NCBI GenBank assembly: GCA_041917435.1
Contig: JAYRXR010000207.1
Span: forward strand, 1 to 64,000
Length of the DNA: 64,000 nucleotides
From: Actinomycetota bacterium
GTDB lineage: Bacteria; Acidobacteriota; Blastocatellia; Chloracidobacteriales; Chloracidobacteriaceae
Reading direction: 5' to 3'
Of the stretch, positions 7,396-61,452 are shown piece by piece (position 1 is the first letter of the stretch; every line of letters begins with the position of its first letter). Under the pieces are notes generated by a model that saw nothing but the letters and a program-made list of their open reading frames with translations, was not told where the DNA came from and ran no database searches. Made by a program: the position numbers and the translations under genes.

Positions 7396-7474
7396 AGATT
7401 GAAGATTGAAGATTTTCGATTGAGGAAAGGGCGGACCGATTCTGGCCCCAATCTCAAATCGAAAATCTTCAATC
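7396..7474. repeat. STR-armed hairpin (caatcgaaaatcttc family); likely bidirectional terminator
   Basis: Arm gattgaagattgaagattttcgattgag (7396-7425) pairs with ctcaaatcgaaaatcttcaatc (7450-7474) across a ~24-nt loop. The module tcttcaatcaaaaatcaccgcattgtcgcYggc is repeated at 7466-7498 and 7568-7600. The element lies between convergent gene ends. Confidence 0.5.
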
Positions 7475-7582
7475 AAAAATCACCGCATTGTCGCTGGCCC
7501 CCTGAAGATCGAAGGCTTTTAAATTGAACTTGTGACGGTCACCCCCTTCTTCAATCGAAAATCTTCAATCTTCAATCAAAAA

Positions 7583-12105: not shown

Positions 12106-12127
12106 AGTTGAATGATGGCCGAACGAC

Positions 12128-12192
12128 GGTATGGAAACCCGACCGTCAGGGAGGGAAACGCCTGCCCTCCCTGACGGTCGGGTTTCCATACC
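12128..12192. terminator. perfect 28-bp inverted repeat with 9-nt loop between convergent genes
   Basis: ggtatggaaacccgaccgtcagggaggg-aaacgcctg-ccctccctgacggtcgggtttccatacc. No flanking T-tract is present. Confidence 0.5.
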
Positions 12193-12215
12193 GGTTGAAA
12201 CTGCCTCTCCTCCCG

Positions 12216-13067: not shown

Positions 13068-13987
13068 AAAGCGCGATCCTCCGCCGCGGATTCGTTCGTC
13101 ATCTCAAGAAAAATGTCTTCCAGCGAAGTCCGGGAAAGCGAGAGATGAAAGACGCCGATGCCGCGTTCCACCAGAACGGCGTTGGCCCGGACGGCGTCTT
13201 CCTCCGACGCGCCGGGCAGAACCAGCTGCCCTTCGGCACCGATTTCAACCTGAAACTTTGCCTCTTTCAGACAGTTCAGCGCGGTTTCGGGGTCGGTGAC
13301 GCCGATGGCGACGTGCCGTTTCTGGCGGGCGCCGAGTTCATCGAGCAAGCCCTGAAACAGCAACCGTCCCCGATGAACAATGGCGATGTGGCCGGCGATC
13401 TGCTCGACTTCGCTTAAAAGATGACTTGAAAGAAACACCGTGATGCCGAATTCGTTCGGCAGCCGACGGATGAGGTCGCGCATTTCATGAATGCCCGCCG
13501 GATCGAGTCCGTTGGTCGGTTCATCCAGAATCAGCAGATCGGGCTGATTCAACAGGGCCAGCGCCAGTCCGAGCCGCTGGCGCATGCCGAGGGAATATTC
13601 CCGGACGGGTCGTCCGGCGTCCTTCACCAGCCGGACAATGTCGAGCGCCCGGTCGATGAGGTTTCGTTCCGCGCCGAGCAGGCGGCGGGTGACTTCGAGA
13701 TTTTCGCGCCCGGTCAGATGCGGGTAGAGCGAAGGGCTTTCGACCAGCGCGCCGACTCGCCGCATCAGCGCCAGTCGTTGTTCAAAAAGGTTTTCGCCGA
13801 ACAATTTCACCGCGCCGCCGTCGGGCCGAATCAGCCCGAGCAGCATGCGGATGGTCGTGGTTTTTCCCGCGCCGTTCGGTCCGAGAAAGCCGAAAACCCC
13901 GGCGGACGGTACGCGCAGGTTGACGGCATCCACGGCCACGCGGTCGGCGAAGCGTTTGGTCAGATCACCGGTTTCAATGGCCAGCAT
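13064..13987 (-). CDS. ABC transporter ATP-binding protein
   Basis: Walker A (GPNGAGKTT), ABC signature (LSLGMRQRL) and Walker B (LILDEPT) motifs are present. Confidence 0.8.
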   Translation of the reverse strand: MLAIETGDLTKRFADRVAVDAVNLRVPSAGVFGFLGPNGAGKTTTIRMLLGLIRPDGGAVKLFGENLFEQRLALMRRVGALVESPSLYPHLTGRENLEVTRRLLGAERNLIDRALDIVRLVKDAGRPVREYSLGMRQRLGLALALLNQPDLLILDEPTNGLDPAGIHEMRDLIRRLPNEFGITVFLSSHLLSEVEQIAGHIAIVHRGRLLFQGLLDELGARQKRHVAIGVTDPETALNCLKEAKFQVEIGAEGQLVLPGASEEDAVRANAVLVERGIGVFHLSLSRTSLEDIFLEMTNESAAEDRAL

Positions 13988-14103
13988 TTGGTTGAATCCT
14001 CTTTTTCAAAACGAACGCGAGGGCGTTTCATTAACACCCGGCGAAAAAAATCGGGACGCCCCGCAAGGAGCATCCCGAAATGTCGTGACCGATGGCGTAC
14101 GGA

Positions 14104-15825
14104 TTACGACTGAACGGGCGCGCTGGCCCCGTTGCCCTGTTTCGCGCCGCGCAGCAGCGTCGCCGCCAGCGCGGGCAGGGTTTCCGAACCGTTTGAACCG
14201 GAAACCAGCACGTCCGGCGCGATCTTGATGTTGCCGTCGCGGACGATCTTCAGGGTTTCAATCGTCACCAGCCCTTCGCGACCGATCTGGTGGCCGAGCA
14301 GTTCGTAGGCGTCCTTGTTGGCCTCGGCGATGAGCCGAATCTTGCGGGCCTCGCCGGAAGCCTCGGCGGCGGCGGCTTCGGCGTTCGACTTCGCAATGTC
14401 CACCGCGGCGGCGGCGGCCACGATGTCGGTCTGCTTGTCGGCCAGCGCGCGGGCCTTTTCGAGTTCGCGGCGCGTTTCCTCGGCGATGGTCTGTTCGCGG
14501 AAGGTTTTTTCGCGCTCCTTCGCCAGAAAACGGTCGGTCTGGGTCTTGAGCAGTTCATCCGGAATCCCGACGTTCCCGATAAGCACGTCCACCGTCTCGA
14601 TACCGTATTCGCGCAACATTCCCGTCGTCACAACCTTGGCGTTGGCCTGCTGCTGCGAACGGTTGTTGAGAAAATCGAGCGCGTCGCAGCTTTCGGCGTT
14701 GTTGCGGAAGGTCGCGCCGATGGCCGGATGAATGACGCGGTCGATGGCGTTCTGAATCGAGCCGATTTTCGAAACGACGACCGGGGCCTGTTCCTTCGGG
14801 ACGCGAATCACGACCTTGACGTCCACCGGGAACGAAAAACCGTCGCGGCTTTTGACCGTGATGGAATCGAGCGGCGTTTCGGAATTCATCGTGTTCCAGT
14901 CGATGGTCGCGTTGAGCGTCGAAATCGGAAACACGACGTAGGCAATCGGGTTCAGGTAGTAGGTATTCGGCTCGATCACCGTCTTCAGCACGCCGCGGTA
15001 GCCTTCATCCACGAGATCGGGCGTCCGTCCGTCTTCACCGAAGGGCGGCAGCACGCCGACGTTCGAACGGATGACGCCGACTTCACCGATGTTGATGACC
15101 GTCGCGGGCTGAACCGTCACTTCAAAAAGCAGCGGGTTGATGTAGTACATCCCCGGTTTGAGAATATCGAGCTGCGGCCCGCGCTGCCCGCCGTTGTCGA
15201 GAAATGGCTGGCCGTCCTGAAAATCGCAATGCCCCTTCACCGCGTCGCCGAGAATCTGTTCCTCGCGCAGTTCAAGCCCGTCGAACGCCTCGACGATCCC
15301 GATTTCGCCGGTCGAAACCTTGACCGCTTCGGCGAGTTGAATGTTGAACAGCCGGGTGTTGATGCGGTACTGCCCCGGCGTCAGGATTTCCACCTGCGGT
15401 CCGCGCTGCCCGCCTTCGCGCAGGAACGCGACGGCGTCCTGAAAGTTGCTGTGGCCGTGAATCCGCTTGCCAAGTAATTGACCGGGCTTGAGTTCGCCGC
15501 CGTCAATCGAGGTCAGCGTCGCGACAAACCCTTGCGGAACCTGAATGAGCGGCACGCGGGTCACGCGGTAAAACGGCGCGAGGAGGATGTGCAGCCCCGG
15601 CGCGAGGGTTTTGGCCTGCATCCCCTGTTCGCCGCTGGCGGCTACGACCCGGCCGGGCGCGAGTCGCGCGCCGAGGATTTTCTTCTCCACCAGTCCGACC
15701 TGGTGTTCGGGAATCATGTGGAGCGATGAAACCACCCAGACAAACACCACGAAAGCCACGAAACCGATCAGGAACACGGCCGGACCGAAATCGAACATGA
15801 GAAGAAACAGAAAGTGAACGGTCAT
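14104..15825 (-). CDS. flotillin/SPFH (band 7) family protein
   Basis: Start at ATG 15823-15825 with an AAGGAGA RBS. The protein has an N-terminal TM, an SPFH domain and a coiled-coil Ala/Glu-rich C-terminus typical of YqiK/flotillin. Confidence 0.75.
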   Translation of the reverse strand: MTVHFLFLLMFDFGPAVFLIGFVAFVVFVWVVSSLHMIPEHQVGLVEKKILGARLAPGRVVAASGEQGMQAKTLAPGLHILLAPFYRVTRVPLIQVPQGFVATLTSIDGGELKPGQLLGKRIHGHSNFQDAVAFLREGGQRGPQVEILTPGQYRINTRLFNIQLAEAVKVSTGEIGIVEAFDGLELREEQILGDAVKGHCDFQDGQPFLDNGGQRGPQLDILKPGMYYINPLLFEVTVQPATVINIGEVGVIRSNVGVLPPFGEDGRTPDLVDEGYRGVLKTVIEPNTYYLNPIAYVVFPISTLNATIDWNTMNSETPLDSITVKSRDGFSFPVDVKVVIRVPKEQAPVVVSKIGSIQNAIDRVIHPAIGATFRNNAESCDALDFLNNRSQQQANAKVVTTGMLREYGIETVDVLIGNVGIPDELLKTQTDRFLAKEREKTFREQTIAEETRRELEKARALADKQTDIVAAAAAVDIAKSNAEAAAAEASGEARKIRLIAEANKDAYELLGHQIGREGLVTIETLKIVRDGNIKIAPDVLVSGSNGSETLPALAATLLRGAKQGNGASAPVQS

Positions 15826-17624: not shown

Positions 17625-17703
17625 GAGTTGCTCCGGCACTTGGTTCACCACTCCTTTCCCAAGGAAAATTGAAAAAACGGTTCCTTCCAATGCGATCCCG
17701 GAC

Positions 17704-18015
17704 GCTCAAATCCCGTCCCCGCGTCGTTCGAACCGGTTCCAGCACCGCTCAATCGCGTCCCAGCGTCGTTCAAACCGGTTCCAGCACCGATCAATCCCGT
17801 CCCAGCGTCGTTTGAACCGGTTCCAGCACCGATCAATCCCGTCCCAGCATCGTTCAAACCGGTTCCAGCACCGCTCAATCCCGTCCCAGCATCGTTTGAA
17901 CCGGTTCCAGCACCGCTCAATCGCGTCCCAGCGTCGTTCAAACCGGTTCCAGCACCGATCAATCCCGTCCCAGCGTCGTTTGAACCGGTTCCAGCACCGC
18001 TCAATCGCGTCCCCG
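17704..18015. repeat. 42-bp tandem repeat, ~7.5 copies, in divergent intergenic region
   Basis: The unit aaccggttccagcaccgMtcaatcScgtcccagcRtcgttYR starts at 17731, 17773, 17815, 17857, 17899, 17941 and 17983. Each unit consists of two related ~21-bp halves. Confidence 0.8.
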
Positions 18016-18105
18016 CAATGCTTCCATCAAAAAATGGGACGGCCGGATTTTGAGTGGGTCAAATTTTCCAACCTGAATGGATGCAAAGGATTTTTCACCA
18101 CGGAG

Positions 18106-18189
18106 TCACGGAGATCACACAGAGAACCACGGAGTTTTTTCTCCGTGAAACTCCGTGAACTCCTTGTGTCTTCGTGGTGAAAGAAGTTT
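18106..18189. repeat. STR-armed hairpin (cacggag units)
   Basis: caccacggagtcacggagatcacacagagaaccacggag-tttttt-ctccgtgaaactccgtgaactccttgtgtcttcgtggtg. Confidence 0.4.
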
Positions 18190-22458: not shown

Positions 22459-22459
22459 A

Positions 22460-22585
22460 CAGTGGCCAGCAGTCAGCAGCCAGTGGTCAGTATTTGAATC
22501 AACCTTGTCAAACTTCAACGTCACCTTTTGAAATAATGGCAACTGGCGACTGACCACTGACGACCGGCAACTGACTACTGACCCA
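22460..22585. repeat. STR-armed hairpin (cagtggt family)
   Basis: Left arm cagtggccagcagtcagcagccagtggtcagt, a ~47-nt loop and right arm gcaactggcgactgaccactgacgaccggcaactgactactgaccc. Confidence 0.5.
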
Positions 22586-22601
22586 CAAGGAGCCGTTTTC
22601 A

Positions 22602-24134
22602 ATGAGTGAACCGACCGCTGTCGTCGAACCGACTGTCGCGCCGCCGCCTCCGAAAAAGAAGGATGCCGACTATGTTTTTCTCGAACTGACCCGCAGTATC
22701 TGTTCGGAATGCAAAAAGGTGCTGGACGCCCACGTCATCGTCCGGAACAACAAGGTCTACATGCGGAAACGCTGCGACTGCGAGGCGACCGGGGGCAAGA
22801 CGATCGAATCGCTGATCTATTCCGACGCGAACGCCTACATTCACAACGTCCGCTACAACAAGCCGGGCACGATTCCGCTGCATTACAACAGTGAAGTCGT
22901 CGAAGGCTGCCCGCATGACTGCGGCCTCTGCCCCGACCACCAGCAGCACACCTGCCTCGGCATCATCGAAGTCAACAGCTACTGCAACATGGATTGCCCG
23001 CTGTGCTTCGCCGAAGCCGGTCCGGGCTTCCAGCTCACGATGGAAGAAGTCGTGGACATTCTCGACAACTTCGTGAAGGCCGAGGGCCGGGCGGAAGTGG
23101 TGCAGTTTTCGGGCGGCGAGCCGAGTATCCACCCGCAGATTCTCGACTTCATGCGCGAGGCCAAGAAGCGTCCGATCAACCTCGTGATGCTCAACACCAA
23201 CGGCAAGCGCATTGCCAAGGACGACCAGTTTCTCGAAGAACTCGCCGAAATCCGGCCCGCCATCTACTTCCAGTTCGACGGCTTCGACAAGGAGACGTAC
23301 CGCGTCATCCGCGGCGAGGAAAACATCCTCGAAGAAAAGCTCAGGGCGCTCGACCGGCTGGCTGAAAAAGGCATGTCCGTGGTGCTCGTGCCGGCCATCG
23401 AACGCGGCGTCAACGACCATGAAGTCGGCAGGATCGTGAAGTTCGCGATGGAGCACCCGGCGGTGCGCGGGGTCAACTTCCAGCCCGCGTTCCACGCCGG
23501 ACGCCACATGGACCACGACCCGATGCAGCGCATGACGATTCCCGACATCGTCGGCATGATCGAGACGCAGACCGAGGAAATGTTCAAGAAGAGCGACTTC
23601 ATCCCCGTTCCCTGCTGCTTCCCGACCTGCAATTCGGTGACCTACGCCTTCATTGAAAACGGCAACGTAACGCCGCTGCCGCGCGTGGTGAACGTCTACG
23701 ATTACCTCGACTACATCACGAACAAGGTCCTGCCGGACTACAGTTCGGAGATCAAGATCGCGCTGGAAGGGCTGTGGTCGTCCTCGACCGCGCCGGGCAC
23801 GCAGAAAAACGCCGAGGACTTCCAGGTTTCCTGCCAGGCGTGCGGTTTCGAGTCGTTCAGCATCGGCGACATCGCCAAGAACGTGAAGATGATCATGATG
23901 CAGGACTTCATGGACCCGCACACCTTCAATCAGAAGAACCTGATGAAGTGCTGCAAGGAATTCCTGCTGCCGGGCGGCAAGCAGGTGCCGTTCTGTTCCT
24001 ACAACACGATCGGCTACCGCGAACAGGCCCGCGAACAGCTCGACGAGATGGAATGGGAGCGCAAACTGGCGAAGAAAGAAGGCAAGCCTTTCGAGGTTCG
24101 CCCGGTGACATTCTCGTTCAAGGACAAGAAATAA
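22602..24134 (+). CDS. radical SAM enzyme with N-terminal Cys4 ribbon and two auxiliary Cys clusters (tetraether/membrane-spanning lipid synthase-like)
   Basis: AAGGAG RBS. CSEC...CDC forms a rubredoxin/Zn-ribbon-like site. An auxiliary CPHDCGLCPDHQQHTC motif precedes the radical SAM CNMDCPLC (CX3CX2C) and GGEP motifs. C-terminal Cys motifs (CCFPTC, CQAC, CC...C) follow. Length 510 aa. Confidence 0.7.
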   Translation: MSEPTAVVEPTVAPPPPKKKDADYVFLELTRSICSECKKVLDAHVIVRNNKVYMRKRCDCEATGGKTIESLIYSDANAYIHNVRYNKPGTIPLHYNSEVVEGCPHDCGLCPDHQQHTCLGIIEVNSYCNMDCPLCFAEAGPGFQLTMEEVVDILDNFVKAEGRAEVVQFSGGEPSIHPQILDFMREAKKRPINLVMLNTNGKRIAKDDQFLEELAEIRPAIYFQFDGFDKETYRVIRGEENILEEKLRALDRLAEKGMSVVLVPAIERGVNDHEVGRIVKFAMEHPAVRGVNFQPAFHAGRHMDHDPMQRMTIPDIVGMIETQTEEMFKKSDFIPVPCCFPTCNSVTYAFIENGNVTPLPRVVNVYDYLDYITNKVLPDYSSEIKIALEGLWSSSTAPGTQKNAEDFQVSCQACGFESFSIGDIAKNVKMIMMQDFMDPHTFNQKNLMKCCKEFLLPGGKQVPFCSYNTIGYREQAREQLDEMEWERKLAKKEGKPFEVRPVTFSFKDKK

Positions 24135-24213
24135 ACACAGAGACACAAAGTCACGAAGACACAAAGATTCCTTTCTTTTCTTCGTGCCTTCGTGACTTTG
24201 TGCCTTCGTGTTG
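24135..24213. repeat. STR-armed hairpin (cacaaag/cacgaag family) between rSAM and methyltransferase genes
   Basis: aacacagagacacaaagtcacgaagacacaaag-attcctttcttttc-ttcgtgccttcgtgactttgtgccttcgtgtt. Confidence 0.5.
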
Positions 24214-31863: not shown

Positions 31864-32283
31864 ATGAAATCGGCGTTCGGCAGTTTCGGGGAAAATCTCG
31901 GCGGTGTTTTTCCGAGGGTCGCCATGGAACTGCTCCGGGAAGGCCGGGCAATCCGTTTTCGGGCGGTTGGATGGAGCATGCACCCGGCCATCGAGGATGG
32001 TGAAACCATTTCGGTTCATCCAATCTCCCCGATGGACCTGAATGTCGGGGATGTCGCCCTTTTCCACATTGAAGACCGGTTGATCGCCCACCGGGTTCTC
32101 CGGTGTCCCTCCCCCGAAAACCCGAATTTTTTGTTGCGGGGGGACGCAATGGCGGAAGGCGAATCCGTAACCGGGGATCAAATTCTCGGAATTGTCCCGG
32201 ACCGGTCACTCGCGCCCCGTCAGGCTGCGGCCAAACGGCTGGTTCATCGGCTCAAACGACGGCTTTTCCCCAAAAAACCGTAA
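31864..32283 (+). CDS. S24/S26 (LexA/signal-peptidase fold) peptidase
   Basis: GWSMHPAIEDGETISV matches the G-SM-P-DGD-V Ser nucleophile region. The ORF is 139 aa. Confidence 0.5.
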   Translation: MKSAFGSFGENLGGVFPRVAMELLREGRAIRFRAVGWSMHPAIEDGETISVHPISPMDLNVGDVALFHIEDRLIAHRVLRCPSPENPNFLLRGDAMAEGESVTGDQILGIVPDRSLAPRQAAAKRLVHRLKRRLFPKKP

Positions 32284-32309
32284 AAATCGGCCCTGCCCGA
32301 TCCGGCGAA

Positions 32310-33500
32310 TTACTTCCGGACAATCGCGCACCCAAGCGCCGGGCGGCAGCCATCCGTGATGGTTTGGCCAGCCAGTACGGCGTCGAGCGCAAGCTGGAGC
32401 GACCGGTGCGTCACCCGATCCGCGTGGTACGTGTTGTCGTCAATCCTTCCGTGATAACGAAGAAATCCTTTTGAATCAATAAGGTATGACTCCGTCATAC
32501 ACATCGAGTTGAGTGTGTCGGCAACCGCGTGCCCGGTATCCACCGCAATCGGGAAATTGAAGGGCCGCGCCTGCTGTCGATTCCGGATTTCCTGGGGGGG
32601 TTCGTTGGCGTTCGGATTGAAACCGATGAAAACGACGCCCTTTTCACCATAGATTTTGGCCAGATCGTTTAACCGCGCCCGGTACGCCTCGACGCAGGGA
32701 CAACGCGTGCCGACCGTCACCAGAACGACCGGTTTCCCTTTGTAATCCGAGAGTTTATGAACTTTCCCGTCCAGGTCGGTCAGGGAAAGGGCCGGCGCGG
32801 GTTCGTTCAACCCGACCGCCGCTTCGTCGGCGGATTGCGCGTGGCCGGCGTGTTCGAAATCGTCGCCGACCGTTCTCCCGCTGAGCAGATCGAAACCGAA
32901 CGCCCCCGCGCCGAAAATCGAGCTGACGAACAATCCGAGAATACAACCGGCCACGGCGGCGGTCCGGACGGTTTTCGGACCGAAAACGGCCGGGAACGCC
33001 TGCTGGGCGGTCAGAATCGGCAGCCCGCCGAAGCCGAAACAGGCCATGGCAATCGCGCCCTGCTTCACTTCCCACGTCGTGAACGCCAGAACGAAAACCG
33101 CCAGAACCAGAATATTCGGGTGAAGTATCGAAAACGCCCCGCGCAGGAACAAACCGCCGGCACTCTCGGCGTTCAGCAGGATTCCCGTCAGTTTCTTCGA
33201 CCATTCAGGCTCGAACGTATCGGCCTTGGAACGAAAAAGCCTGACCGGGAGCGCAATCGCGGCAAACGCCACGACCACGCAGGGGATAAAGAAAACGTAC
33301 CTTCCCCAGCCGATGAGATAGGCGGCTTCGATAAACCAGAGACCGAGTTGACCGGCAAACGCGCCGAGCGCGGCCAGTCCGGCGACGCGTCCGAGACCGA
33401 ACGTCATCAGTTTGGAGGGATCGAACCGGTCCAGCCGGGCCGTCCGCATGCGTAACCGTTCGATGATGCCGAGCAGAAAGGCGGCAATCAGAAAAACCAT
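32310..33500 (-). CDS. MauE/DoxX-type membrane domain fused to thioredoxin-like (TlpA/redoxin) domain
   Basis: The N-terminal ~200 aa is polytopic membrane. The C-terminus has a thioredoxin fold with the motif TRCPCV. Confidence 0.6.
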   Translation of the reverse strand: MVFLIAAFLLGIIERLRMRTARLDRFDPSKLMTFGLGRVAGLAALGAFAGQLGLWFIEAAYLIGWGRYVFFIPCVVVAFAAIALPVRLFRSKADTFEPEWSKKLTGILLNAESAGGLFLRGAFSILHPNILVLAVFVLAFTTWEVKQGAIAMACFGFGGLPILTAQQAFPAVFGPKTVRTAAVAGCILGLFVSSIFGAGAFGFDLLSGRTVGDDFEHAGHAQSADEAAVGLNEPAPALSLTDLDGKVHKLSDYKGKPVVLVTVGTRCPCVEAYRARLNDLAKIYGEKGVVFIGFNPNANEPPQEIRNRQQARPFNFPIAVDTGHAVADTLNSMCMTESYLIDSKGFLRYHGRIDDNTYHADRVTHRSLQLALDAVLAGQTITDGCRPALGCAIVRK

Positions 33501-33586
33501 GCAAAACTCCTTTTTTCAGTAGCCAGTCGCCAGTGGTCAGCCGCCAGTGAATGAAGCCGGACGGAAGACCACGAGTTTGAACTGAT

Positions 33587-35580: not shown

Positions 35581-35657
35581 GAACACAAAGGCACAAAGGC
35601 ACGAAGACACGAAGTTTTTCTTTCTTTGTGTCTTTGTGCCTTCGTGTCTTTGTGTTC
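35581..35657. repeat. STR-armed hairpin (cacaaag/cacgaag family)
   Basis: gaacacaaaggcacaaaggcacgaagacacgaag-tttttctttc-tttgtgtctttgtgccttcgtgtctttgtgttc. Confidence 0.5.
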
Positions 35658-35663
35658 CCTTCT

Positions 35664-37640
35664 TTACTTTGCAAACTCCCGGAAACGCCCTAAAGCCATC
35701 AGCGGGAAGTAGTTCCGGTAAAAGTGGTAGTTCATGTAGAAGTGGTTCGGGAAGCCCGTGCCGGTGTATTCCGGCTCGGTCCAGCTTCCGTCGTCGTTCT
35801 GCGTGGTCACGAGGTATTCGATGCCGCGCCGCACGCATTCCGACTTCCCTTCGCCGCCCGCAATCAGGCCGAGAATCGCCCACGCGGTCTGTGACGCGGT
35901 GCTTTTGCCCTGTCCCATCAGGTTCCGGTTGCCGTAGCTCAGGCAGGTTTCGCCCCAGCCGCCGTCTTCGTTCTGGCAGGAATTGAGCCACTGGGTCGCG
36001 TGCATGATGTACGCCTCGCGCGGGTCGAGGCCGAGCGCGACGAGGCCGCAGATGACCATGTGCGTGCCGTAGATGTAATTGACGCCCCAGCGTCCCCACC
36101 AGCAGCCCTCGTGTTCCTGCTTCTGGCGGATGAACGCCACCGCCCGGTCGATTTTCTCCTTCGGCGCGGGGTAATCCGTCACCCCGAGCATTTCAAGAAC
36201 ATGCCCGGTCAGGTCGGCGGTCGGCGGGTCGATCATCGCCTTCAAATCGCCGTACGGAATCTCATTGAGGATTTCCATGTCGTTATCGACATCGAACGCG
36301 CCCCAGCCGCCGCCCTTGCACTGCATCGACAGCACCCACTCGGTCGCGGCCTTCAACCGGCGCTGCTTGTCTTCCTCGTTTTTCAACTTTAGCCGATGGA
36401 GCGCCATGATGACGACGCTCGTGTCGTCGGTGTCGGGGAAGAAATCGTTCCAGAATTCGAACGCCCAGCCGCCCTGCGGTCCGGTCTTGTTTTTGAACTT
36501 CCAGTCGCCGTCGCGGAAAATCTGCTTTTCAATCAGCCATTCGCCCGCCCGGACGAGCGCCGGGTGGTCGGGGGCCATCCCCGAATCGAGCATGGCGAGA
36601 ATCATCAGGCCGGTGTCCCACACGGGCGAGACGCAGGGCTGGGTGTGAAAATCCTCGTCGGTCTCGATGCAGAACTTGTCCACCGCGTCGAGGCCCTTTT
36701 TCATGATCGGATGGTCCGGCTGGTAGCCCCGGCAGTGCAGCCCGAGCAGCGAATTGAGCATGGCCGGGATGATGCCGCCCCAGTCGCCGCTTTCGTCCTG
36801 ATGCTCGATGGTCCACTTTTCGGCGAGCGCGAGGGCTTCTTCCCGGCGCGGCGAAAAGTTGTATTTCTCCATCAGTTTCAATGTTTTATCGACACCGATG
36901 AAGGCCCCGCCGAGGGAAAACGTCCCCGCCGGATTGGGGATCGCGAGCTTGGCGTTGTCGCGCCCTTCGACGTAAAGCTCGTCAACGTGGCCGTTCGGGA
37001 CCTTCGTCACGGGCTTTTTGTCGCAGACGATGAGCAGCGGCACCGTCGAACTCCGCGCCCAGCTCGCCAGTTCGTAAATCGTGAACGGAAACCAGTCCGG
37101 CAGCAGCATGATCCACGGCGGCATGGTCGGGCAGCCTTCCCACGGGAACGCGCCGAACAGGGCGAGGTGGATCTTCGTGAAAATGCGCGACTTGGTGACG
37201 CCGCCTTTCGCCAGAATGAATTCCCGCGCCTTCTTCATGTGCGGGTCGTCGGGCGAATCGCCGAGAATTTTCAACGCGAAATAGGCTTCGATGCTGGTCG
37301 AAAGCTCGCCGCCGTCGCCGAAAAACAGTTCCCATCCGCCGTGTTCGCGCTGTTCCTTCCGCAAATAGGTCCGGATTTTCGCCATCTGCGTGACGCGCGA
37401 GCCGTCGGTGCCGAGAATCTTGTGCAAAAAGACGTACTCGGCGGTCAGCGTGACGTTGGCTTCGAGTTCGGCCCACCAGTAGCCCTCGGGATACTGCTTG
37501 CCGAGCAGGTAATTCTGGGAACGTTCGATGGTCGCTTCGACGGATTCCTTCGAATAGGGGGCCGGGCGAACGGAACGAACGCCGAGCGGAACACGCGATT
37601 CCACGGCCGGCATCGGGTACACATCTTTAAAACTGGTCAT
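35664..37640 (-). CDS. shc: squalene-hopene cyclase
   Basis: GAGGAAG RBS with start at ATG 37638-37640. Multiple QW motifs (QxxxGxW), the catalytic DTDDTSVV (DxDDTA) motif and a ~660-aa length support the call. Confidence 0.85.
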   Translation of the reverse strand: MTSFKDVYPMPAVESRVPLGVRSVRPAPYSKESVEATIERSQNYLLGKQYPEGYWWAELEANVTLTAEYVFLHKILGTDGSRVTQMAKIRTYLRKEQREHGGWELFFGDGGELSTSIEAYFALKILGDSPDDPHMKKAREFILAKGGVTKSRIFTKIHLALFGAFPWEGCPTMPPWIMLLPDWFPFTIYELASWARSSTVPLLIVCDKKPVTKVPNGHVDELYVEGRDNAKLAIPNPAGTFSLGGAFIGVDKTLKLMEKYNFSPRREEALALAEKWTIEHQDESGDWGGIIPAMLNSLLGLHCRGYQPDHPIMKKGLDAVDKFCIETDEDFHTQPCVSPVWDTGLMILAMLDSGMAPDHPALVRAGEWLIEKQIFRDGDWKFKNKTGPQGGWAFEFWNDFFPDTDDTSVVIMALHRLKLKNEEDKQRRLKAATEWVLSMQCKGGGWGAFDVDNDMEILNEIPYGDLKAMIDPPTADLTGHVLEMLGVTDYPAPKEKIDRAVAFIRQKQEHEGCWWGRWGVNYIYGTHMVICGLVALGLDPREAYIMHATQWLNSCQNEDGGWGETCLSYGNRNLMGQGKSTASQTAWAILGLIAGGEGKSECVRRGIEYLVTTQNDDGSWTEPEYTGTGFPNHFYMNYHFYRNYFPLMALGRFREFAK

Positions 37641-37723
37641 CCGAGAAAAACTTCCTCTGTAAAACTCTTCCGAAGTGGACGAATCCGCCAAAATAGCGAA
37701 TCGCCATCCAAAGCGACAATGCC

Positions 37724-37872
37724 AAAGGATGAAGGATGAGGGATGAAGGATGAAAAATCGTTTTGAATGTTGAGTTTGGGCGAAATAAGGAATTTTTCCG
37801 AATTCCGAAAAACTCATAATTCATCACTCAAAACTTTCCTTCATCCTTCATCCTTCCGCCTTCATCCTTTCA
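37724..37872. repeat. STR-armed hairpin (ggatgaa family) with nested palindrome
   Basis: aaaggatgaaggatgagggatgaaggatgaaaaa ... ccttcatccttcatccttccgccttcatcctttc. The loop contains tttttccgaattccgaaaaa. Confidence 0.5.
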
Positions 37873-40049: not shown

Positions 40050-40390
40050 GTTTTCGTTTTGAACCCTGATGTCTGGACACTTTTCAAGAACTGCGTGTTT
40101 CGTACGTCTTCATCGGTTTTCGTCCCGTAGGGACGGTTGAAAATAGCCCGCCGTTTTAACGGCGGGAACGCGCAGGGCCACGCCCCAAAGTCCCAAAGGG
40201 ACGACAGATGGAGGCGGATTCTGATTCTCGGCCGTCCCTCCGGGACTCTCAATCTCTTGCCACGCTTGTCCCACCGTTAAAACGGTGGGCTATTTTCGAC
40301 CGTCCCTTCGGGACGAAGACAATTTCGACCTTTATTTGCGGGATATTTTTGAAAAGTGTCCCGACTTCAGTTTTGAACCTTAAAAAGCCG
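40050..40390. repeat. composite inverted-repeat element (MITE-like or structured RNA) with four GTCCC-N3-GGGAC palindromes
   Basis: A ~50-bp module (40108-40160) recurs inverted at 40263-40318. Palindromes sit at ~40119, 40190, 40233 and 40301. gttttgaacc ends occur at 40057 and 40370. Confidence 0.45.
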
Positions 40391-42679: not shown

Positions 42680-42900
42680 CGAAACGTTTTCCGCGACGCG
42701 AAATACCTTTTCTTCGTCAAAAGTACCTCTGGAACGACAGAAAATACCTTTCCGGCGTGAAGGAAAAGGTTTTCTTCGACGGAAAAAACGTTTTCCGCGT
42801 GGAGAAATACCTTTTCCTCATTGAAAAAACCCTGGGAACGCCGGGAAATACCTTTTCCCCGTCGTTCCGAAACAATTTCCCGCCGGAAAAACGAAAAGGG
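42680..42900. repeat. degenerate ~20-21-bp tandem array (~11 copies) in promoter region of monooxygenase gene
   Basis: Units of the form gaaaWWNSYTTTYC(N6-8). The core gaaataccttttc lies at ~42704, 42754, 42809 and 42849. Confidence 0.5.
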
Positions 42901-42957
42901 ACGCGACCGGAACACTCCGGTTTCATCCCTCATCCTTCCGCCTTCATCCTTTTCCGC

Positions 42958-45458: not shown

Positions 45459-45480
45459 GAGGGGGAAACTCCAAATTTTA

Positions 45481-47455
<1,975 letters not shown>

Positions 47456-47508: not shown

Positions 47509-48309
47509 TTACTTCGCCGATACCGCTTTCTCGGCAAGCAGGTTCAACACGCGCTCGACATCCTCGGGGGTATCCACCCCGGGCGAGGAATGCCGGGTTT
47601 CCACAACGCGAATCGGAAAACCGTGATGCAGCGCCCGAAGCTGTTCCAGCGCCTCGACGGTTTCGAGCGGCGCGGGCGGCAACCCGGCGAAACGCAATAA
47701 AAAGGAGCGACGATACACGTAGAGGCCGGTGTGTTTCCACCATCTTCCGCTTTCAACCGTCGTTCCGGGGACGAGCGGGTCGGCCCGGTCATAGGGAATC
47801 GGCGCGCGCGAAAAATAGAGCGCGTCGCCCCGATCATTCCGTATCACCTTGACGATATTGGGGTTGAGGATGTCATCCGCCGCGGTGAGTGGTTCGCAGG
47901 TGGTGGCCATCGGCAATTCCGGATCGACCAGCAGGGGGCGGATGGCGGCGTCGATGGTTTCGGGCGAAATGAGCGGTTCGTCGCCCTGTACGTTGACGAC
48001 GATGTCGCAATCGAGCGCGGCGGCGACTTCGGCGAGGCGGTCCGTGCCGGTGGCGTGATCGGGGCTAGTCAGCACCGCTTCCACGCCGTATTTGCGGGCG
48101 ACGCCGAGAATCCGCTCGTCGTCGGTCGCGATGATGACGCGCGAAACAAGCCGGGCCTGGCGCGCGCGTTCGCACACGCGGATGACCATCGGCGTTCCGG
48201 CCAGTTCGATGAGCGGTTTGCCGGGCAGACGGGTCGAGGCGTAGCGAGCGGGAATGATCGCGACGGCGGAGGGATTGGAGGAAGTCAGTTTGAAGGCCGT
48301 GGGTGTCAC
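47509..48309 (-). CDS. kdsB: 3-deoxy-manno-octulosonate cytidylyltransferase
   Basis: VAIIPARYASTRLPGKPL and the GTDR and QGDEP motifs are present. Confidence 0.8.
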   Translation of the reverse strand: MTPTAFKLTSSNPSAVAIIPARYASTRLPGKPLIELAGTPMVIRVCERARQARLVSRVIIATDDERILGVARKYGVEAVLTSPDHATGTDRLAEVAAALDCDIVVNVQGDEPLISPETIDAAIRPLLVDPELPMATTCEPLTAADDILNPNIVKVIRNDRGDALYFSRAPIPYDRADPLVPGTTVESGRWWKHTGLYVYRRSFLLRFAGLPPAPLETVEALEQLRALHHGFPIRVVETRHSSPGVDTPEDVERVLNLLAEKAVSAK

Positions 48310-48457
48310 GGGCCGTCACGATAGCCCAAGCCGCGAAGACCGCGCAAACCGGAACCCGAAATTCCGGAAAAAAACGGCTCGGGAGAATTTTTTCCAGTCA
48401 CGCCGCGTGATAGGGTGGCGTCGCCTCCGAAACGTCCGTCCCGAAGGGACCCCGGCC

Positions 48458-49402
48458 ATGGAAATTCTTTTTTTCGGAACGAGTTCCGCCGTACCGACCC
48501 GCAGTCGCAACGTTTCGGGCCTCGGATTCAAACCGACGCCCCGGCGCGAATGGTGGCTCTTCGATTGCGGAGAAGGCACCCAGCACCGGGTTCAGCAATC
48601 GAACTACTCGCTGGCCGATCTGACGAAGATTTTCATCACCCATATGCACGGGGACCACGTGCTTGGCCTGCCGGGCCTGCTGGCGAGCGCCGGGATGGGC
48701 GGACGCCGCGACCGGCTGGATCTGTTCGGCCCGCCGGAACTCCCCGAATTCGTCGAACATTCCCTGAGACTGACCCAGACCTATCTGCCCTACCCGACCA
48801 ACTTCCATGACATTTCGGAAGGATTCATCTGGGAGGACGACCGTCTGACGGTTACGTCCGAGGCCTTGAAACACCGGGTACCGGCCTATGGCTACCGGGT
48901 CGCGGAAAAACATTCGACCGGGCGCTTTCTGGTCGAAAAGGCGCGTGAACTCGGAATTCCCGTCGGCCCGGTCTACACCCGGCTGAAACGCGGGGAAACC
49001 GTAACGCTCGACGATGGCCGGACCATCGACGGACGCGACCTGTGCGAAGACCTGCGCCCTGGCCGGGTGTTCGCCTACTGTACCGACACGACCTACTGCG
49101 AAGCGTCGATCCGGCTGGCGCGGCACGCGGACGTACTCGTCCACGAATGCACATACCTCAACGCGGATGAAAAACGCGCCGTTGAATCCACCCATTCGAC
49201 CGCCGGGATGGCCGGCCGGGTGGCCCGGGAGGCCGAAGCCCTGCGACTGATCGTCACGCATTTCAGCGCCCGGTACAGCGAAGAGGGCGACCCCGCCTTC
49301 CTGACCCTGCTCGACGAGGCGCGGGCGGAATTTCCGCGAACCGAAGCGGCCCGCGAACTCACCCCCTACGCCATTACCGGAAGGATGAAGGATGAAGGAT
49401 GA
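48458..49402 (+). CDS. rnz: ribonuclease Z (MBL-fold tRNA 3'-processing endonuclease)
   Basis: Start at ATG 48458 (MEILFFGTSSAVPT). Contains the HxHxDH motif (HMHGDH). The 3' end runs into the ggatgaa repeat. Confidence 0.7.
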   Translation: MEILFFGTSSAVPTRSRNVSGLGFKPTPRREWWLFDCGEGTQHRVQQSNYSLADLTKIFITHMHGDHVLGLPGLLASAGMGGRRDRLDLFGPPELPEFVEHSLRLTQTYLPYPTNFHDISEGFIWEDDRLTVTSEALKHRVPAYGYRVAEKHSTGRFLVEKARELGIPVGPVYTRLKRGETVTLDDGRTIDGRDLCEDLRPGRVFAYCTDTTYCEASIRLARHADVLVHECTYLNADEKRAVESTHSTAGMAGRVAREAEALRLIVTHFSARYSEEGDPAFLTLLDEARAEFPRTEAARELTPYAITGRMKDEG

Positions 49403-49525
49403 AGGATGAAGGATGAAGGATGAAGGATGAAGGATGAAGGACCGTCAGGTTTCGACTCCGGCTTGTCAAGAATTTTTCAACCCGAATCAGACTTTTCTTC
49501 ACTTCATCGTTCATCATTCATCGTT
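49381..49525. repeat. STR-armed hairpin: 8 x ggatgaa then complementary ttcatc arm
   Basis: (ggatgaa)x8 at 49381-49438 overlaps the last codons of rnz. cttcacttcatcgttcatcattcatcg lies at 49496-49522. Confidence 0.6.
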
Positions 49526-55212: not shown

Positions 55213-55340
55213 GGAAATGCGGAATGCGGAATATCGAATGCGGAATAGCAATTTTTAGAGTAAAAAGCCGGGTTTCGAACTTCCTGACTTGAAAAATGGT
55301 TCGAAAATTCCGCATTCGATATTCCGCATTCCGCATTTTT
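55213..55340. repeat. STR-armed hairpin (gcggaat family)
   Basis: gaaatgcggaatgcggaatatcgaatgcggaat ... gaaaattccgcattcgatattccgcattccgcattttt. Confidence 0.5.
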
Positions 55341-55342
55341 CA

Positions 55343-57172
55343 ATGACCGCCCCTGCCCCGAACCCCCGCGCTTTTCCCGTTCGCTTCGACGTCGCCATCC
55401 TGCTGGTGGCGTCCATCGTTTTTCTTTCCGCCTGTTTTTCACCGCCGAATCTGATGGACGACGTGGATTCCGCGCAGGTGGCGATTGCCCGGACGATGCT
55501 CGAAACCGGCGACTGGGTGACGATGCGGCTCAACGGCATCGCCTATCTTGAAAAAGCACCGTTGAAATACTGGCTGATCGCCGTTTTCTTCAGGATTTTC
55601 GGCGTCAGCGACTGGGCCGGACGACTTCCCATCGGCCTCGCGACCGTCGGCCTGTGCTGGGTGACCGGACGGTTCACGGCGTGGGCGTTCGGCGCGCGCG
55701 CCGGACTGTACGCCGGGCTGACGCTCGCGGGCGGCCTCGGCCTGTTTCTGTTCACCCGTATTCTGATTCCCGACTCGACGCTCACGCTGACCATCGCCCT
55801 CGCGATGTGGGGATTTCTCCGGTCGCTCGATCCGGATGAAAAAAATCCGCGCCGGTGGTCGTTCATCGCCGCGCTGTGCATTGCCGCCGGGCTGCTCCTG
55901 AAGGGCCTCATCGCCGCCGTGTTCCCGGTCGCGGCGATTTTCCTGTATCTGGCGATTTCGGGGCGACTGCTCGACCGGGAAGTCTGGAAAAAGCTCCATC
56001 CCGTTCAAAACATTGTGGTCATCCTGCTCGTCGCGGCCCCGTGGTTCGTGCTGGCGACGCTCCAGAACCCGCCCTACTTCGTGTTTTCGATGGAGAGCGC
56101 GCCCGGTCAGTACAAGGGCTTTTTCTGGTTCTATTTTTTTAACGAACACATCCTGCGCTTCCTCGGCCGGCGCTATCCGCGCGACTACAACACGGTCCCG
56201 CGGCTGTGGTTCTGGACCTCGCACCTCGTCTGGTTCTTTCCGTGGAGCGCATTCCTTCCCGGCGTGTTCAAACTGGGGTTCACCCGTCGCCCCGAAGATC
56301 GCGAAGGCGCGGCGAAACTGCTCGCGCTGTGCTGGATCGGGTTCGTCATGGTGTTTTTCACGCTTTCGACGACCCAGGAGTACTACTCGCTGCCGATTTA
56401 CCCGGCCGTCGCGATGCTGCTCGGCGCGGCGATGGCGCAGGGCGGGAAAGCGGTCACGTTCGGACGCTGGGCGACGAGCGTCATCGCCGGACTGGCGGCG
56501 CTGGCGTCCGGGTGGATTCTGTTCACCGTTCGGAACATTCCGACGCCCGGCGACATCGCGCAGGCGCTCCAGAAAAGCACGGACGTCTATTCGACCTACA
56601 CGCTGTCGCTCGGCCACATGGGCGATTTGACGTTGAAATCCTTTGCCTACTTGCGGTTACCGCTCGCGCTCGCGGCGGCGGCGTTTCTCGTCGGCGCGGT
56701 CGGCGTCCACATCGGCGCGAAACGGAAGGAGGGCCACCAGCCGTTCGCGGCGCTGGCGGTGATGATGTTGCTCTTTCTGGTGGCGGCGCGGATTGCGATG
56801 GTGGCGTTCGACCCGTATCTCGGCTCGCGCCCGCTCGCGGAAAGCCTCAAAACATCGCTCGCGAGCCAGCCCGGCAAGGTTGTCGTGGACAACCAGTACT
56901 ACGCCTTCTCGTCGGTTTTCTTTTACGCCGACCTGAAATCCGCCCTGCTGCTCAACGGACGCACCACCAACCTCGAATACGGCTCGAACGCCCCCGGCGC
57001 GCCCGACGTGTTTCTCGACGACCCGAAATTCCGCGAACTGTGGATGAAGCCCGAACGGGTCTACCTGCTGGTGGAGGACGTCAATCTGCCCCGAATCGAA
57101 AAACTCGTCGGGAAGGAAAACCTGAAGAAGGTGGCGTTCAGCGGCGGGAAATATCTGTTCACGAATCAGTAG
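55343..57172 (+). CDS. ArnT/PMT-like (GT39/GT83) membrane glycosyltransferase
   Basis: Start at ATG 55343. It is a ~12-TM protein with an N-terminal DD/DE loop (MDDVDSAQ) and a C-terminal soluble domain. Confidence 0.65.
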   Translation: MTAPAPNPRAFPVRFDVAILLVASIVFLSACFSPPNLMDDVDSAQVAIARTMLETGDWVTMRLNGIAYLEKAPLKYWLIAVFFRIFGVSDWAGRLPIGLATVGLCWVTGRFTAWAFGARAGLYAGLTLAGGLGLFLFTRILIPDSTLTLTIALAMWGFLRSLDPDEKNPRRWSFIAALCIAAGLLLKGLIAAVFPVAAIFLYLAISGRLLDREVWKKLHPVQNIVVILLVAAPWFVLATLQNPPYFVFSMESAPGQYKGFFWFYFFNEHILRFLGRRYPRDYNTVPRLWFWTSHLVWFFPWSAFLPGVFKLGFTRRPEDREGAAKLLALCWIGFVMVFFTLSTTQEYYSLPIYPAVAMLLGAAMAQGGKAVTFGRWATSVIAGLAALASGWILFTVRNIPTPGDIAQALQKSTDVYSTYTLSLGHMGDLTLKSFAYLRLPLALAAAAFLVGAVGVHIGAKRKEGHQPFAALAVMMLLFLVAARIAMVAFDPYLGSRPLAESLKTSLASQPGKVVVDNQYYAFSSVFFYADLKSALLLNGRTTNLEYGSNAPGAPDVFLDDPKFRELWMKPERVYLLVEDVNLPRIEKLVGKENLKKVAFSGGKYLFTNQ

Positions 57173-57280
57173 CCAGTGGTCAGCAGTCAGTGGTCAGTGG
57201 TCAGTAAAAACAGTTTGCTGATCACTGGCCACTGACAACTGGCGACTGGCCACTGGCCACTGGCCACTCCTCACGCCAGC
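57168..57280. repeat. STR-armed hairpin (cagtggt family) between convergent genes
   Basis: cagtagccagtggtcagcagtcagtggtcagtggtcagt ... tcactggccactgacaactggcgactggccactggccactggccactcc. Confidence 0.5.
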
Positions 57281-61306: not shown

Positions 61307-61452
61307 GCGCGAAAATTCATCCTGAACGACAAAACGCCGCGACGGTTTCATCGCGGCGTTCTTCATGTTTCGGGACAGGCTTCGGCAATTCCGACACAAC
61401 CGCCAGACGCAAGACTCCCGACTCCAGACTCGGGACTCCCGACTTCCTCCCA

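Follow-up and report, generated by a model that had tools for sequence, protein, structure and literature searches.

What are the intergenic hairpins, built of short tandem repeats (STRs), that lie in contig JAYRXR010000207.1 of a bacterium placed by GTDB in the Chloracidobacteriaceae (Acidobacteriota; GenBank assembly GCA_041917435.1, deposited as an Actinomycetota bacterium)? We analysed positions 1 to 64,000 of this contig, the whole of which is called the window below. A first-pass annotation had marked three copies of one hairpin family in it, termed family D, and had offered terminators, RNA-stability elements, protein-binding sites and slippage-prone contingency loci as possible explanations. 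Judged by sequence comparison, family D is something which that annotation overlooked, namely a unit conserved across phyla that also forms the envelope of genes for a small nuclease-like protein, GxxExxY (PF13366). The hairpins look like a little-known selfish DNA element rather than ordinary terminators. We moderately favour the reading in which the three sites represent solo copies of a palindromic DNA element that is linked to the GxxExxY nuclease and resembles two known kinds of element, the hairpin-forming doublets of repetitive extragenic palindromic (REP) sequences known as REPINs and the MITEs (transposable elements of the miniature inverted-repeat type).

All three hairpins (elements 1, 2 and 3; Table 1) exist where they had been annotated, within refined limits. 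Their arms consist of three to four tandem units of about 8 nt, CAC-R-R-A-G-N, opposite complementary units. Tandem Repeats Finder returned a period of 8 rather than 7, with units CACAAAGG and TCTTTGTG, so that the family D unit is a CAC-R-R-A-G heptamer plus one spacer base. Four versions of the heptamer occur in the window (CACAAAG, CACGAAG, CACAGAG and CACGGAG), all of them CAC-type, and the purine-rich arm comes first in every copy. The earlier description of near-perfect 33-bp stems fits element 1, whose four mismatches are all G-T on the forward strand, and roughly fits element 2, but it overstates element 3, the most degenerate of the three, in which the units are irregularly spaced (8, 9 and 12 nt). 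The palindromes end in GAACAC/GTGTTC (element 1), AACAC/GTGTT (element 2) and TTTCACCAC/GTGGTGAAA (element 3); the termini of element 3, TTTCACCACGGAG...CTTCGTGGTGAAA, are the same ends as in many phyla. Across the three sites the z-scores for folding ranged from -6.7 to -11.5 as RNA and from -5.5 to -10.6 as DNA, with none of 200 shuffles equally stable. The stem (34 bp) has a G+C content of about 43% in a window of 60%. Where 0.02 instances of the two-unit pattern CACRRAGNCACRRAG would be expected, the window contains 13.

The arms reach far beyond this genome. A scan of one genome per species (596 Gb) for three CACRRAG units, using the pattern CACRRAGNCACRRAGNCACRRAG, gave at least 120 matches, where our own estimate of the chance expectation is about 17. 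Among the matches listed, which do not include the genome analysed here, nearly all come from different species, and they span more than 15 phyla. They include Planctomycetota, Acidobacteriota, Verrucomicrobiota, Gemmatimonadota, Nitrospirota, Alpha-, Beta-, Gamma- and Deltaproteobacteria, Bacteroidota, Spirochaetota, Chloroflexota, Actinomycetota, Cyanobacteria, metagenome-assembled genomes (MAGs) of Firmicutes and one archaeal MAG. The design recognised in the window, an STR arm, a loop and a complementary STR arm, recurs both within it and far outside. The family-wide unit has the consensus C-R-C-N-R-A-G, to which 1-2 spacer bases are added, and occurs as inverted pairs, with arms that usually hold exactly three units separated by purine spacers. 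The palindrome is often extended outward by TTCAC or TTAAC directly before the first CAC, the ends being of the types ACAC/CCAC...GTGG/GTGT, and the centre between the arms measures 6-690 nt among the loci listed. The CAC (purine-rich) arm comes first at 60 or more loci and the reverse order alone at 3; because a palindrome reads alike on both strands, this order is a genuine polarity.

Most of the genome and viral matches listed are solo elements like the window copies, whose loops are 6-11 nt long. According to a crude gene caller, solo elements lie in 28 co-directional, 8 convergent and 5 divergent spacers, at a median of 16-25 nt past the upstream stop codon. Copies within single genomes share loop and flanks (two Longimicrobium loci, L061 and L071; also L112 and L051; L numbers are our labels for compared loci and contigs), as is typical of REP or MITE families. 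The same arms are found at no fewer than 120 loci of viral contigs in IMG/VR, and one arm element, unannotated, lies 3 nt past the miaB stop codon on a Bacteroides plasmid.

One gene recurs between these arms. At 4 of the 120 listed genome loci, in four lineages (Desulfobacterales, Chitinophagaceae, Opitutus and Melioribacter), they flank or abut an open reading frame (ORF) of about 130 amino acids that encodes a GxxExxY protein (TIGR04256, E = 1e-39 to 1e-45; PF13366 PDDEXK_3, E = 1e-37 to 1e-45). Apart from GxxExxY, no ORF family recurs beside the arms at the listed genome loci. The association was also examined from the side of the gene, in a metagenome scan with an alignment of the four sequences, from which the best 80 of 591 relatives were taken (46-85% identity to the query). 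Among these, 71 genes had at least 100 nt on either side, and 74 positions shifted by 1 kb served as controls. Flanking inverted repeats scoring 24 or more surrounded 66 of the 71 genes and 7 of the 74 controls; at a score of 30 or more the figures were 55 and 0. Arms with C[A/G]C triplets at a period of 7-9 nt enclosed 64 of the 71 genes (90%), compared with 2 of the controls, and in 55 of these 64 cases the forward arm came first (reverse order in 9). The units of the window are among the commonest around GxxExxY genes, where we counted CACGAAG 55 times, CACCAAG 49, CACAAAG 43, CGCAAAG 39, CGCAGAG 24, CGCCAAG 23 and CACAGAG 17. When each protein was paired with its nearest neighbour, the arms agreed in their CAC or CGC class 48 times out of 64, where 54% was expected, and had an identical middle 4-mer 31 times out of 64, where 19% was expected; gene and arms travel together.

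Arrangements vary around this pattern. Four metagenomic loci (L173, L185, L205 and L206) carry their arms in truly reversed order, the gene being preceded by the reverse arm and followed by the forward one; these arms belong to the CGC class, their inner ends read GCGAGAGAT...ATCTCGC, and outer partner arms are lacking. Elements are often nested or in tandem (L019 1800-1890; L054 6032-6661; L113 1330-2090; L149; L194), with CGC-type and CAC-type arms side by side within one genome at L019, and in some cases two solo hairpins enclose a GxxExxY gene.

In the four-sequence alignment E34, D74, E84 and K86 are invariant, the pattern expected of an active PD-(D/E)XK site from what is known of the superfamily and from PMC3424549. 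GxxExxY has at least 7991 relatives, and PF13366 is described as a family of unknown function with multiple horizontal transfers (PMC3424549). PADLOC returned only a faint Cas4b match. Literature searches on GxxExxY, on PF13366/TIGR04256 and on the literal repeat strings found no account of the arms or of the association within a partial coverage of journals, and an earlier description is possible. Since the same envelope surrounds about 90% of the sampled GxxExxY genes, the three window hairpins are its gene-less (solo) form.

Relatives of the bacterium show how the hairpins change. At the shc site the hairpin is absent, and the two genes overlap, in a pair of relatives with 76% identity in the shc protein (L005 and L006). 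At the site next to the radical-SAM gene, the genes overlap by 4 nt in L212 (82% identity), again with no hairpin, and the radical-SAM/methyltransferase junction of L213 (81% identity) holds an 86-nt non-repeat spacer. About 10-15 kb around the shc and radical-SAM genes of these distant relatives contained no family D-type repeat; a weak hairpin at L213 8593-8650 (stem about 25 bp, DNA z = -3.7) is perhaps a relic or decayed element. Relative to these outgroups, the window hairpins at both sites are insertions. In a sister species of about 88% nucleotide identity, with contigs 87-92% identical, a hairpin is present at both orthologous sites (L001; L208-L211, including GCA_039793685.1).

The sister species keeps a hairpin at each site, but with units of another class. 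There, all units on both arms are CGC-type (CGCAAAG, CGCCAAG, CGCAAGG and CGCGAAG), whereas those of the window are CAC-type. Eight units have changed in parallel, which is implausible by point mutation and argues that whole elements were replaced or converted. The same uniformity is seen across the family: among 54 gene-carrying elements, 44 contain units of one class only, either CAC or CGC (7% expected), and the CAC fraction of one arm correlates with that of the other (r = 0.97). In solo elements pairing at the variable positions amounts to 78.5%, whereas shuffling the partners gives 58.5 ± 2.7%; none of 2000 shuffles reached the observed figure. Repeat number did not vary. Four independent sister-species assemblies are identical over the hairpin and both species have four units per arm, so that there is no sign of slippage polymorphism, and the idea of a simple sequence repeat contingency locus was rejected.

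From these observations we infer that the maintenance and spread of the element take place in DNA, the probable agent being a GxxExxY-type nuclease that acts on the repeats. Such a nuclease would recognise the units and mobilise or convert copies in trans. Copies would land in short intergenic spacers right after stop codons; elements 1 and 2 lie 6 and 0 nt from the upstream stop. Replacement or conversion of whole units would keep the units of an element alike and its arms complementary. The upstream transcript would gain a very stable stem just past its stop codon, which could hinder 3'-5' decay, invite RNase III or disturb termination-reinitiation; we regard these as side effects. A wider proposal, which we put forward only tentatively, is that the octamer palindrome and the GxxExxY PD-(D/E)XK protein form an unrecognised, cross-phylum class of mobile or self-maintaining DNA, in which the small nuclease reads C-R-C-N-R-A-G on both arms and drives the copying or conversion of gene-carrying and gene-less hairpins.

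Several results weigh against the reading as a nuclease-tied element. A tblastn search found no GxxExxY gene in the window, and there was none on 1.1 Mb of arm-carrying viral contigs (120 listed viral loci). Solo elements with centres of 90-1000 nt held no GxxExxY remnants, and the two sites with empty outgroup alleles showed no clear target-site duplication or excision footprint. The apparent species-wide switch of unit class, seen at two of two sites, is suggestive and could be coincidence; as a general rule, genome-wide homogeneity of unit class was rejected, with 11 concordant and 10 discordant cluster pairs. The GxxExxY sample, being the best matches to one query alignment, is broad and not random. 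We know of no biochemical activity for PF13366, and an AlphaFold model of GxxExxY built with 40 close homologues was unusable (predicted local distance difference test score 39); the PDB contained no sequence relatives. Finally, a host-selected RNA element, too, would be expected to lie just past stop codons.

That last explanation is the best of the alternatives, although we judge it unlikely. The stem would be selected by the host as an RNA structure that shields the upstream mRNA at its 3' end from exonucleases, is processed by RNase III or attenuates read-through and so sets the ratio of operon products; REP sequences and bacterial interspersed mosaic elements (BIMEs) work as such RNA elements in E. 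coli. The great stability of the stems, the preference of solo copies for gene 3' ends and the retention of the hairpin at both orthologous sites of the sister species all speak for it. However, structure alone leaves the conservation of the unit over more than 15 phyla, the polarity of the arms and the GxxExxY envelope unexplained, one copy lies in a divergent promoter region, and the closest outgroups do without the hairpin, their genes overlapping.

The strands themselves also argue against selection on one transcript. On the sense strand of gene-carrying elements, 1858 Watson-Crick pairs were accompanied by 56 G-U, 50 A-C and 133 other mismatches, so no preference for wobble pairs was detected. 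At the two operonic sites of the window the transcribed strand is the weaker folder (-44.9 versus -53.2 and -39.2 versus -50.2 kcal/mol for the opposite strand), because the mismatches are A-C on the transcribed strand and G-U on the opposite one. Together, the lack of a sense-strand bias and the strand asymmetry in the window argue that it is in DNA, or symmetrically, that the arms are kept complementary, and not for one particular transcript. Rfam 15 gave no match at the three sites at the gathering threshold, and below it only generic long-hairpin (miRNA precursor) matches of at most 38 bits against thresholds of 47-200.

Nor do the hairpins look like canonical terminators, the first function suggested for them. 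Like Rho-independent terminators they form a stem-loop just past a stop codon; unlike them they have a long stem of modest G+C content and no U-tract, and two of the three copies, elements 1 and 2, sit inside co-directional gene pairs. The transcribed strand continues with AAAGAGAACTCATG after the stem at 35581 (reverse strand) and with GAAACAAAGGAG after that at 24134 (forward strand), neither of which is a T/U run, and a consensus scan for terminators and promoters called neither of these operonic hairpins.

Less probable than a host RNA structure is a landing pad, in which the hairpin exists beforehand, homing-type GxxExxY genes insert at its centre, and solo copies are unoccupied targets that the nuclease does not mobilise. 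In its favour, palindromic DNA is what dimeric PD-(D/E)XK enzymes typically recognise, roughly 90% of the sampled genes lie at the centre of the palindrome, and solo copies far outnumber occupied ones (gene at 4 of 120 listed genome loci and 0 of 120 listed viral loci). It does not account for the existence of the empty sites, their multi-copy state, their appearance de novo between genes that overlap in outgroups or the replacement of whole elements at the same site by the other unit class, and a clade with a true reverse-order arrangement exists.

That the units form an array to which a host DNA-binding protein attaches (a nucleoid or topology factor, for example), the link to GxxExxY being incidental, is distinctly improbable. 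The units are repeated, spaced and sequence-specific, their complementarity is strand-symmetric, and for BIMEs binding of gyrase and IHF has been proposed. Against this, we know of no universally conserved host factor of such specificity, the distribution is patchy even among close relatives, and an association of 90% with one small gene family is hardly incidental. Protein binding to the hairpins, which the first-pass annotation had suggested, is still a live idea. Slippage-born STRs, inverted by chance and serving as hypervariable contingency loci, are scarcely credible and this reading is largely refuted: the arms are tandem repeats, and heptamer families of the window do change copy number between the sister species (22459-22601 versus L208), yet family D has four units per arm in both species, is identical in the four sister-species assemblies, has three units almost everywhere and conserves unit sequence and arm polarity over phyla.

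How does the proposed nuclease-tied element compare with known systems? In REPIN-RAYT systems, REP doublets are serviced by a REP-associated tyrosine transposase (RAYT), the gene for which is itself flanked by REP sequences (PMC3116915, PMC3337134). Family D resembles these in its short extragenic hairpin palindromes, in the many gene-less copies per gene, in a gene flanked by inverted repeats, in the sequence shared by copies within a genome and in its location after gene ends; the window copies are extragenic hairpins, three of them in 64 kb. It differs in its partner, a PD-(D/E)XK-type protein of about 125 amino acids rather than a Y1/HUH transposase, and in its arms, which are tandem octamers instead of a unique REP of about 20 nt with GTAG. 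Nearly every gene copy has its own envelope, the gene family is multi-copy, and the unit is common to more than 15 phyla. With MITEs it shares terminal inverted repeats (TIRs), a short, variable, non-coding centre, an intergenic location and a larger gene-carrying form with the same ends. As to differences, no clear target-site duplication was seen, neither a DDE-type parent nor any other transposase was found, and the one larger form has GxxExxY as its gene. The "TIRs", moreover, consist of repeats themselves and may amount to the entire element, with a loop as short as 6-10 nt.

Another relative in form is the intervening sequence of 23S rRNA genes, where a small selfish ORF lies in long inverted repeats that pair in the transcript. 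Located in helices of the rRNA, these sequences are excised by RNase III, and their classic ORF encodes a four-helix-bundle protein. Family D likewise places a small ORF within inverted repeats, but has no rRNA context, and to our knowledge STR arms are not a described feature of the intervening sequences.

The claim that hairpins with STR arms had not been described as a class stands only in part. Certain bacteria are enriched in heptamer tandem repeats, and 70-75 inverted GGGAATC pairs have been catalogued in Xanthomonas (PMC4692102). Cyanobacteria and Beggiatoaceae also carry tandem heptamers (PMC4692102, PMC4679880), and TAACTGA repeats are common to Beggiatoaceae, cyanobacteria and Bacteroidetes, with no known mechanism (PMC4679880). 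For these heptamers no gene association was reported (PMC4692102, PMC4679880). Family D shares with the heptamer systems (GGGAATC; short tandemly repeated repetitive sequences, STRRs; TAACTGA) intergenic STRs that often form convergent pairs capable of a stem-loop, and a patchy spread across phyla. It departs from them in its 8-nt period, its fixed small number of units and its defined gene partner. Membership in the heptamer STRR or Xanthomonas-type class was rejected for family D on its period of 8, whereas the other families of the window have a period of 7 and four of them (AAGGATG, ATTGAAG, AATGCGG and CAGTGGC) resemble the Xanthomonas and cyanobacterial kind.

Table 1. Family D hairpins and other 7-nt-unit repeat sites in the 64,000-nt window
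Feature	Extent	Arms	Loop	Left arm	Setting
Element 1	35581-35657	35581-35614 / 35624-35657; 34 nt, 88% Watson-Crick	9 nt, 35615-35623, TTTTTCTTT	35581-35614, GAA-CACAAAGG-CACAAAGG-CACGAAGA-CACGAAG	6 nt past shc stop (35664-35666, - strand), 11 nt ahead of Caroten_synth ATG (35569)
Element 2	24134-24212	24134-24167 / 24179-24212; 34 nt, 85% complementary	11 nt, T/C-rich, 24168-24178	24134-24167, contains CACAGAGA-CACAAAGT-CACGAAGA-CACAAAG	begins on last base of radical-SAM stop (gene 22602-24134, +), ends 18 nt before methyltransferase ATG (24231, +)
Element 3	18093-18182	18093-18134 / 18141-18182; 42 nt, 71% complementary	TTTTTT, 18135-18140		646-nt divergent spacer between MgtC/DUF4010 gene (-) and Ser/Thr-kinase-TPR gene (+, ATG 18337)
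Other families (at least four), hairpin or single arm	7391-7577				
Other families	22460-22580				
Other families	33517-33548				
Other families	37724-37870				
Other families	42922-42951				
Other families	45475-45701				
Other families	49380-49525				
Other families	55215-55338				
Other families	57166-57268				
Other families	61413-61444				

The gene context first described for two of the hairpins was confirmed. Element 1 adjoins shc, with both shc and the Caroten_synth gene on the reverse strand; the shc product was taken as the 658-aa form, and its best matches are MAGs of Acidobacteriota/Blastocatellia. These matches, together with two Acido-Lenti-1 RNA motifs and the G+C content, assign the window to an acidobacterium. 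Element 2 separates a methyltransferase gene from an upstream radical-SAM gene that is tetraether-synthase-like (Tes-like). In the divergent spacer that holds element 3, a 42-bp tandem repeat of 7.4 copies (17703-18013, 91% matches) adjoins the hairpin; ORFs cross this repeat on both strands, the one on the forward strand having no Pfam match.

About a dozen other intergenic regions of the window carry inverted arms of 7-nt units (ATTGAAG, AAGGATG/GAAGGAT, AATGCGG, CAGTGGC-like and GACTCCC), so that the design characterises this genome. In these families, too, the purine-richer arm is usually the leading one. No gene partner was found for them at the loci examined, only ordinary host genes lying between distant arms. 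The heptamer hairpin at 22459-22601, between an FAD-oxidoreductase gene and the radical-SAM gene, is kept in the sister species (L208 3936-4093), where CAGTGG has become TTAGTAG/CTACTAA and the right arm has 8 copies to the 6 of the window; it is missing from L212 and L213. At its 3' end the predicted gene 48254-49402 runs into a perfect array of 8.9 GAAGGAT units (49380-49441, 100% matches), which lies opposite a TTCATCG arm at 49503-49525.

Some of these hairpins coincide with discontinuities between assemblies. A short-read contig from another sample (L207), 100% identical to window positions 35628-37751, ends in element 1 and in the AAGGATG hairpin, indicating that the hairpins break short-read assemblies. 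Synteny with the sister species is lost some 20 nt away from the AAGGATG hairpin that lies upstream of shc (window position ~37703, L001 position 3331), beyond which L001 has an HSP90 gene and a 382-aa gene instead. Elsewhere, L208 has two additional genes at 13166-15496, one for a response-regulator protein of 600 aa and the other for a protein of 166 aa; both are missing at the syntenic window position ~32283-32310.

Further repeats of other kinds were noted in the spacers. A perfect, non-repetitive 29-bp palindrome at 12127-12193 (CGGTATGGAAACCCGACCGTCAGGGAGGG, 9-nt loop, -0.63 kcal/mol per nt) lies between convergent genes, and tandem repeats with a 42-nt period occupy long spacers at 42735-42831 and 45576-45702, the latter built of 14-nt ATCTTCAATCGAAA units. 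Two Acido-Lenti-1 motifs (RF01687; 50.3 and 46 bits, threshold 37) at 40116-40320 lie on opposite strands and form a 52-nt inverted repeat, 90% complementary and 101 nt apart, in a 413-nt spacer.

Looking beyond the window, PF13366 is a very large family, and the hairpin gives it a concrete candidate substrate. If a nuclease-driven element is indeed at work, it would explain why PF13366 is abundant, patchy and multi-copy, and why the unit class can switch at fixed sites. The association suggests a system of the REPIN kind with another enzyme at its core, and it may offer a lead on the intergenic STR hairpins of Xanthomonas and cyanobacteria. For the bacterium itself, elements of the window split gene pairs that overlap in relatives, and the expression of these operons may change as a result.

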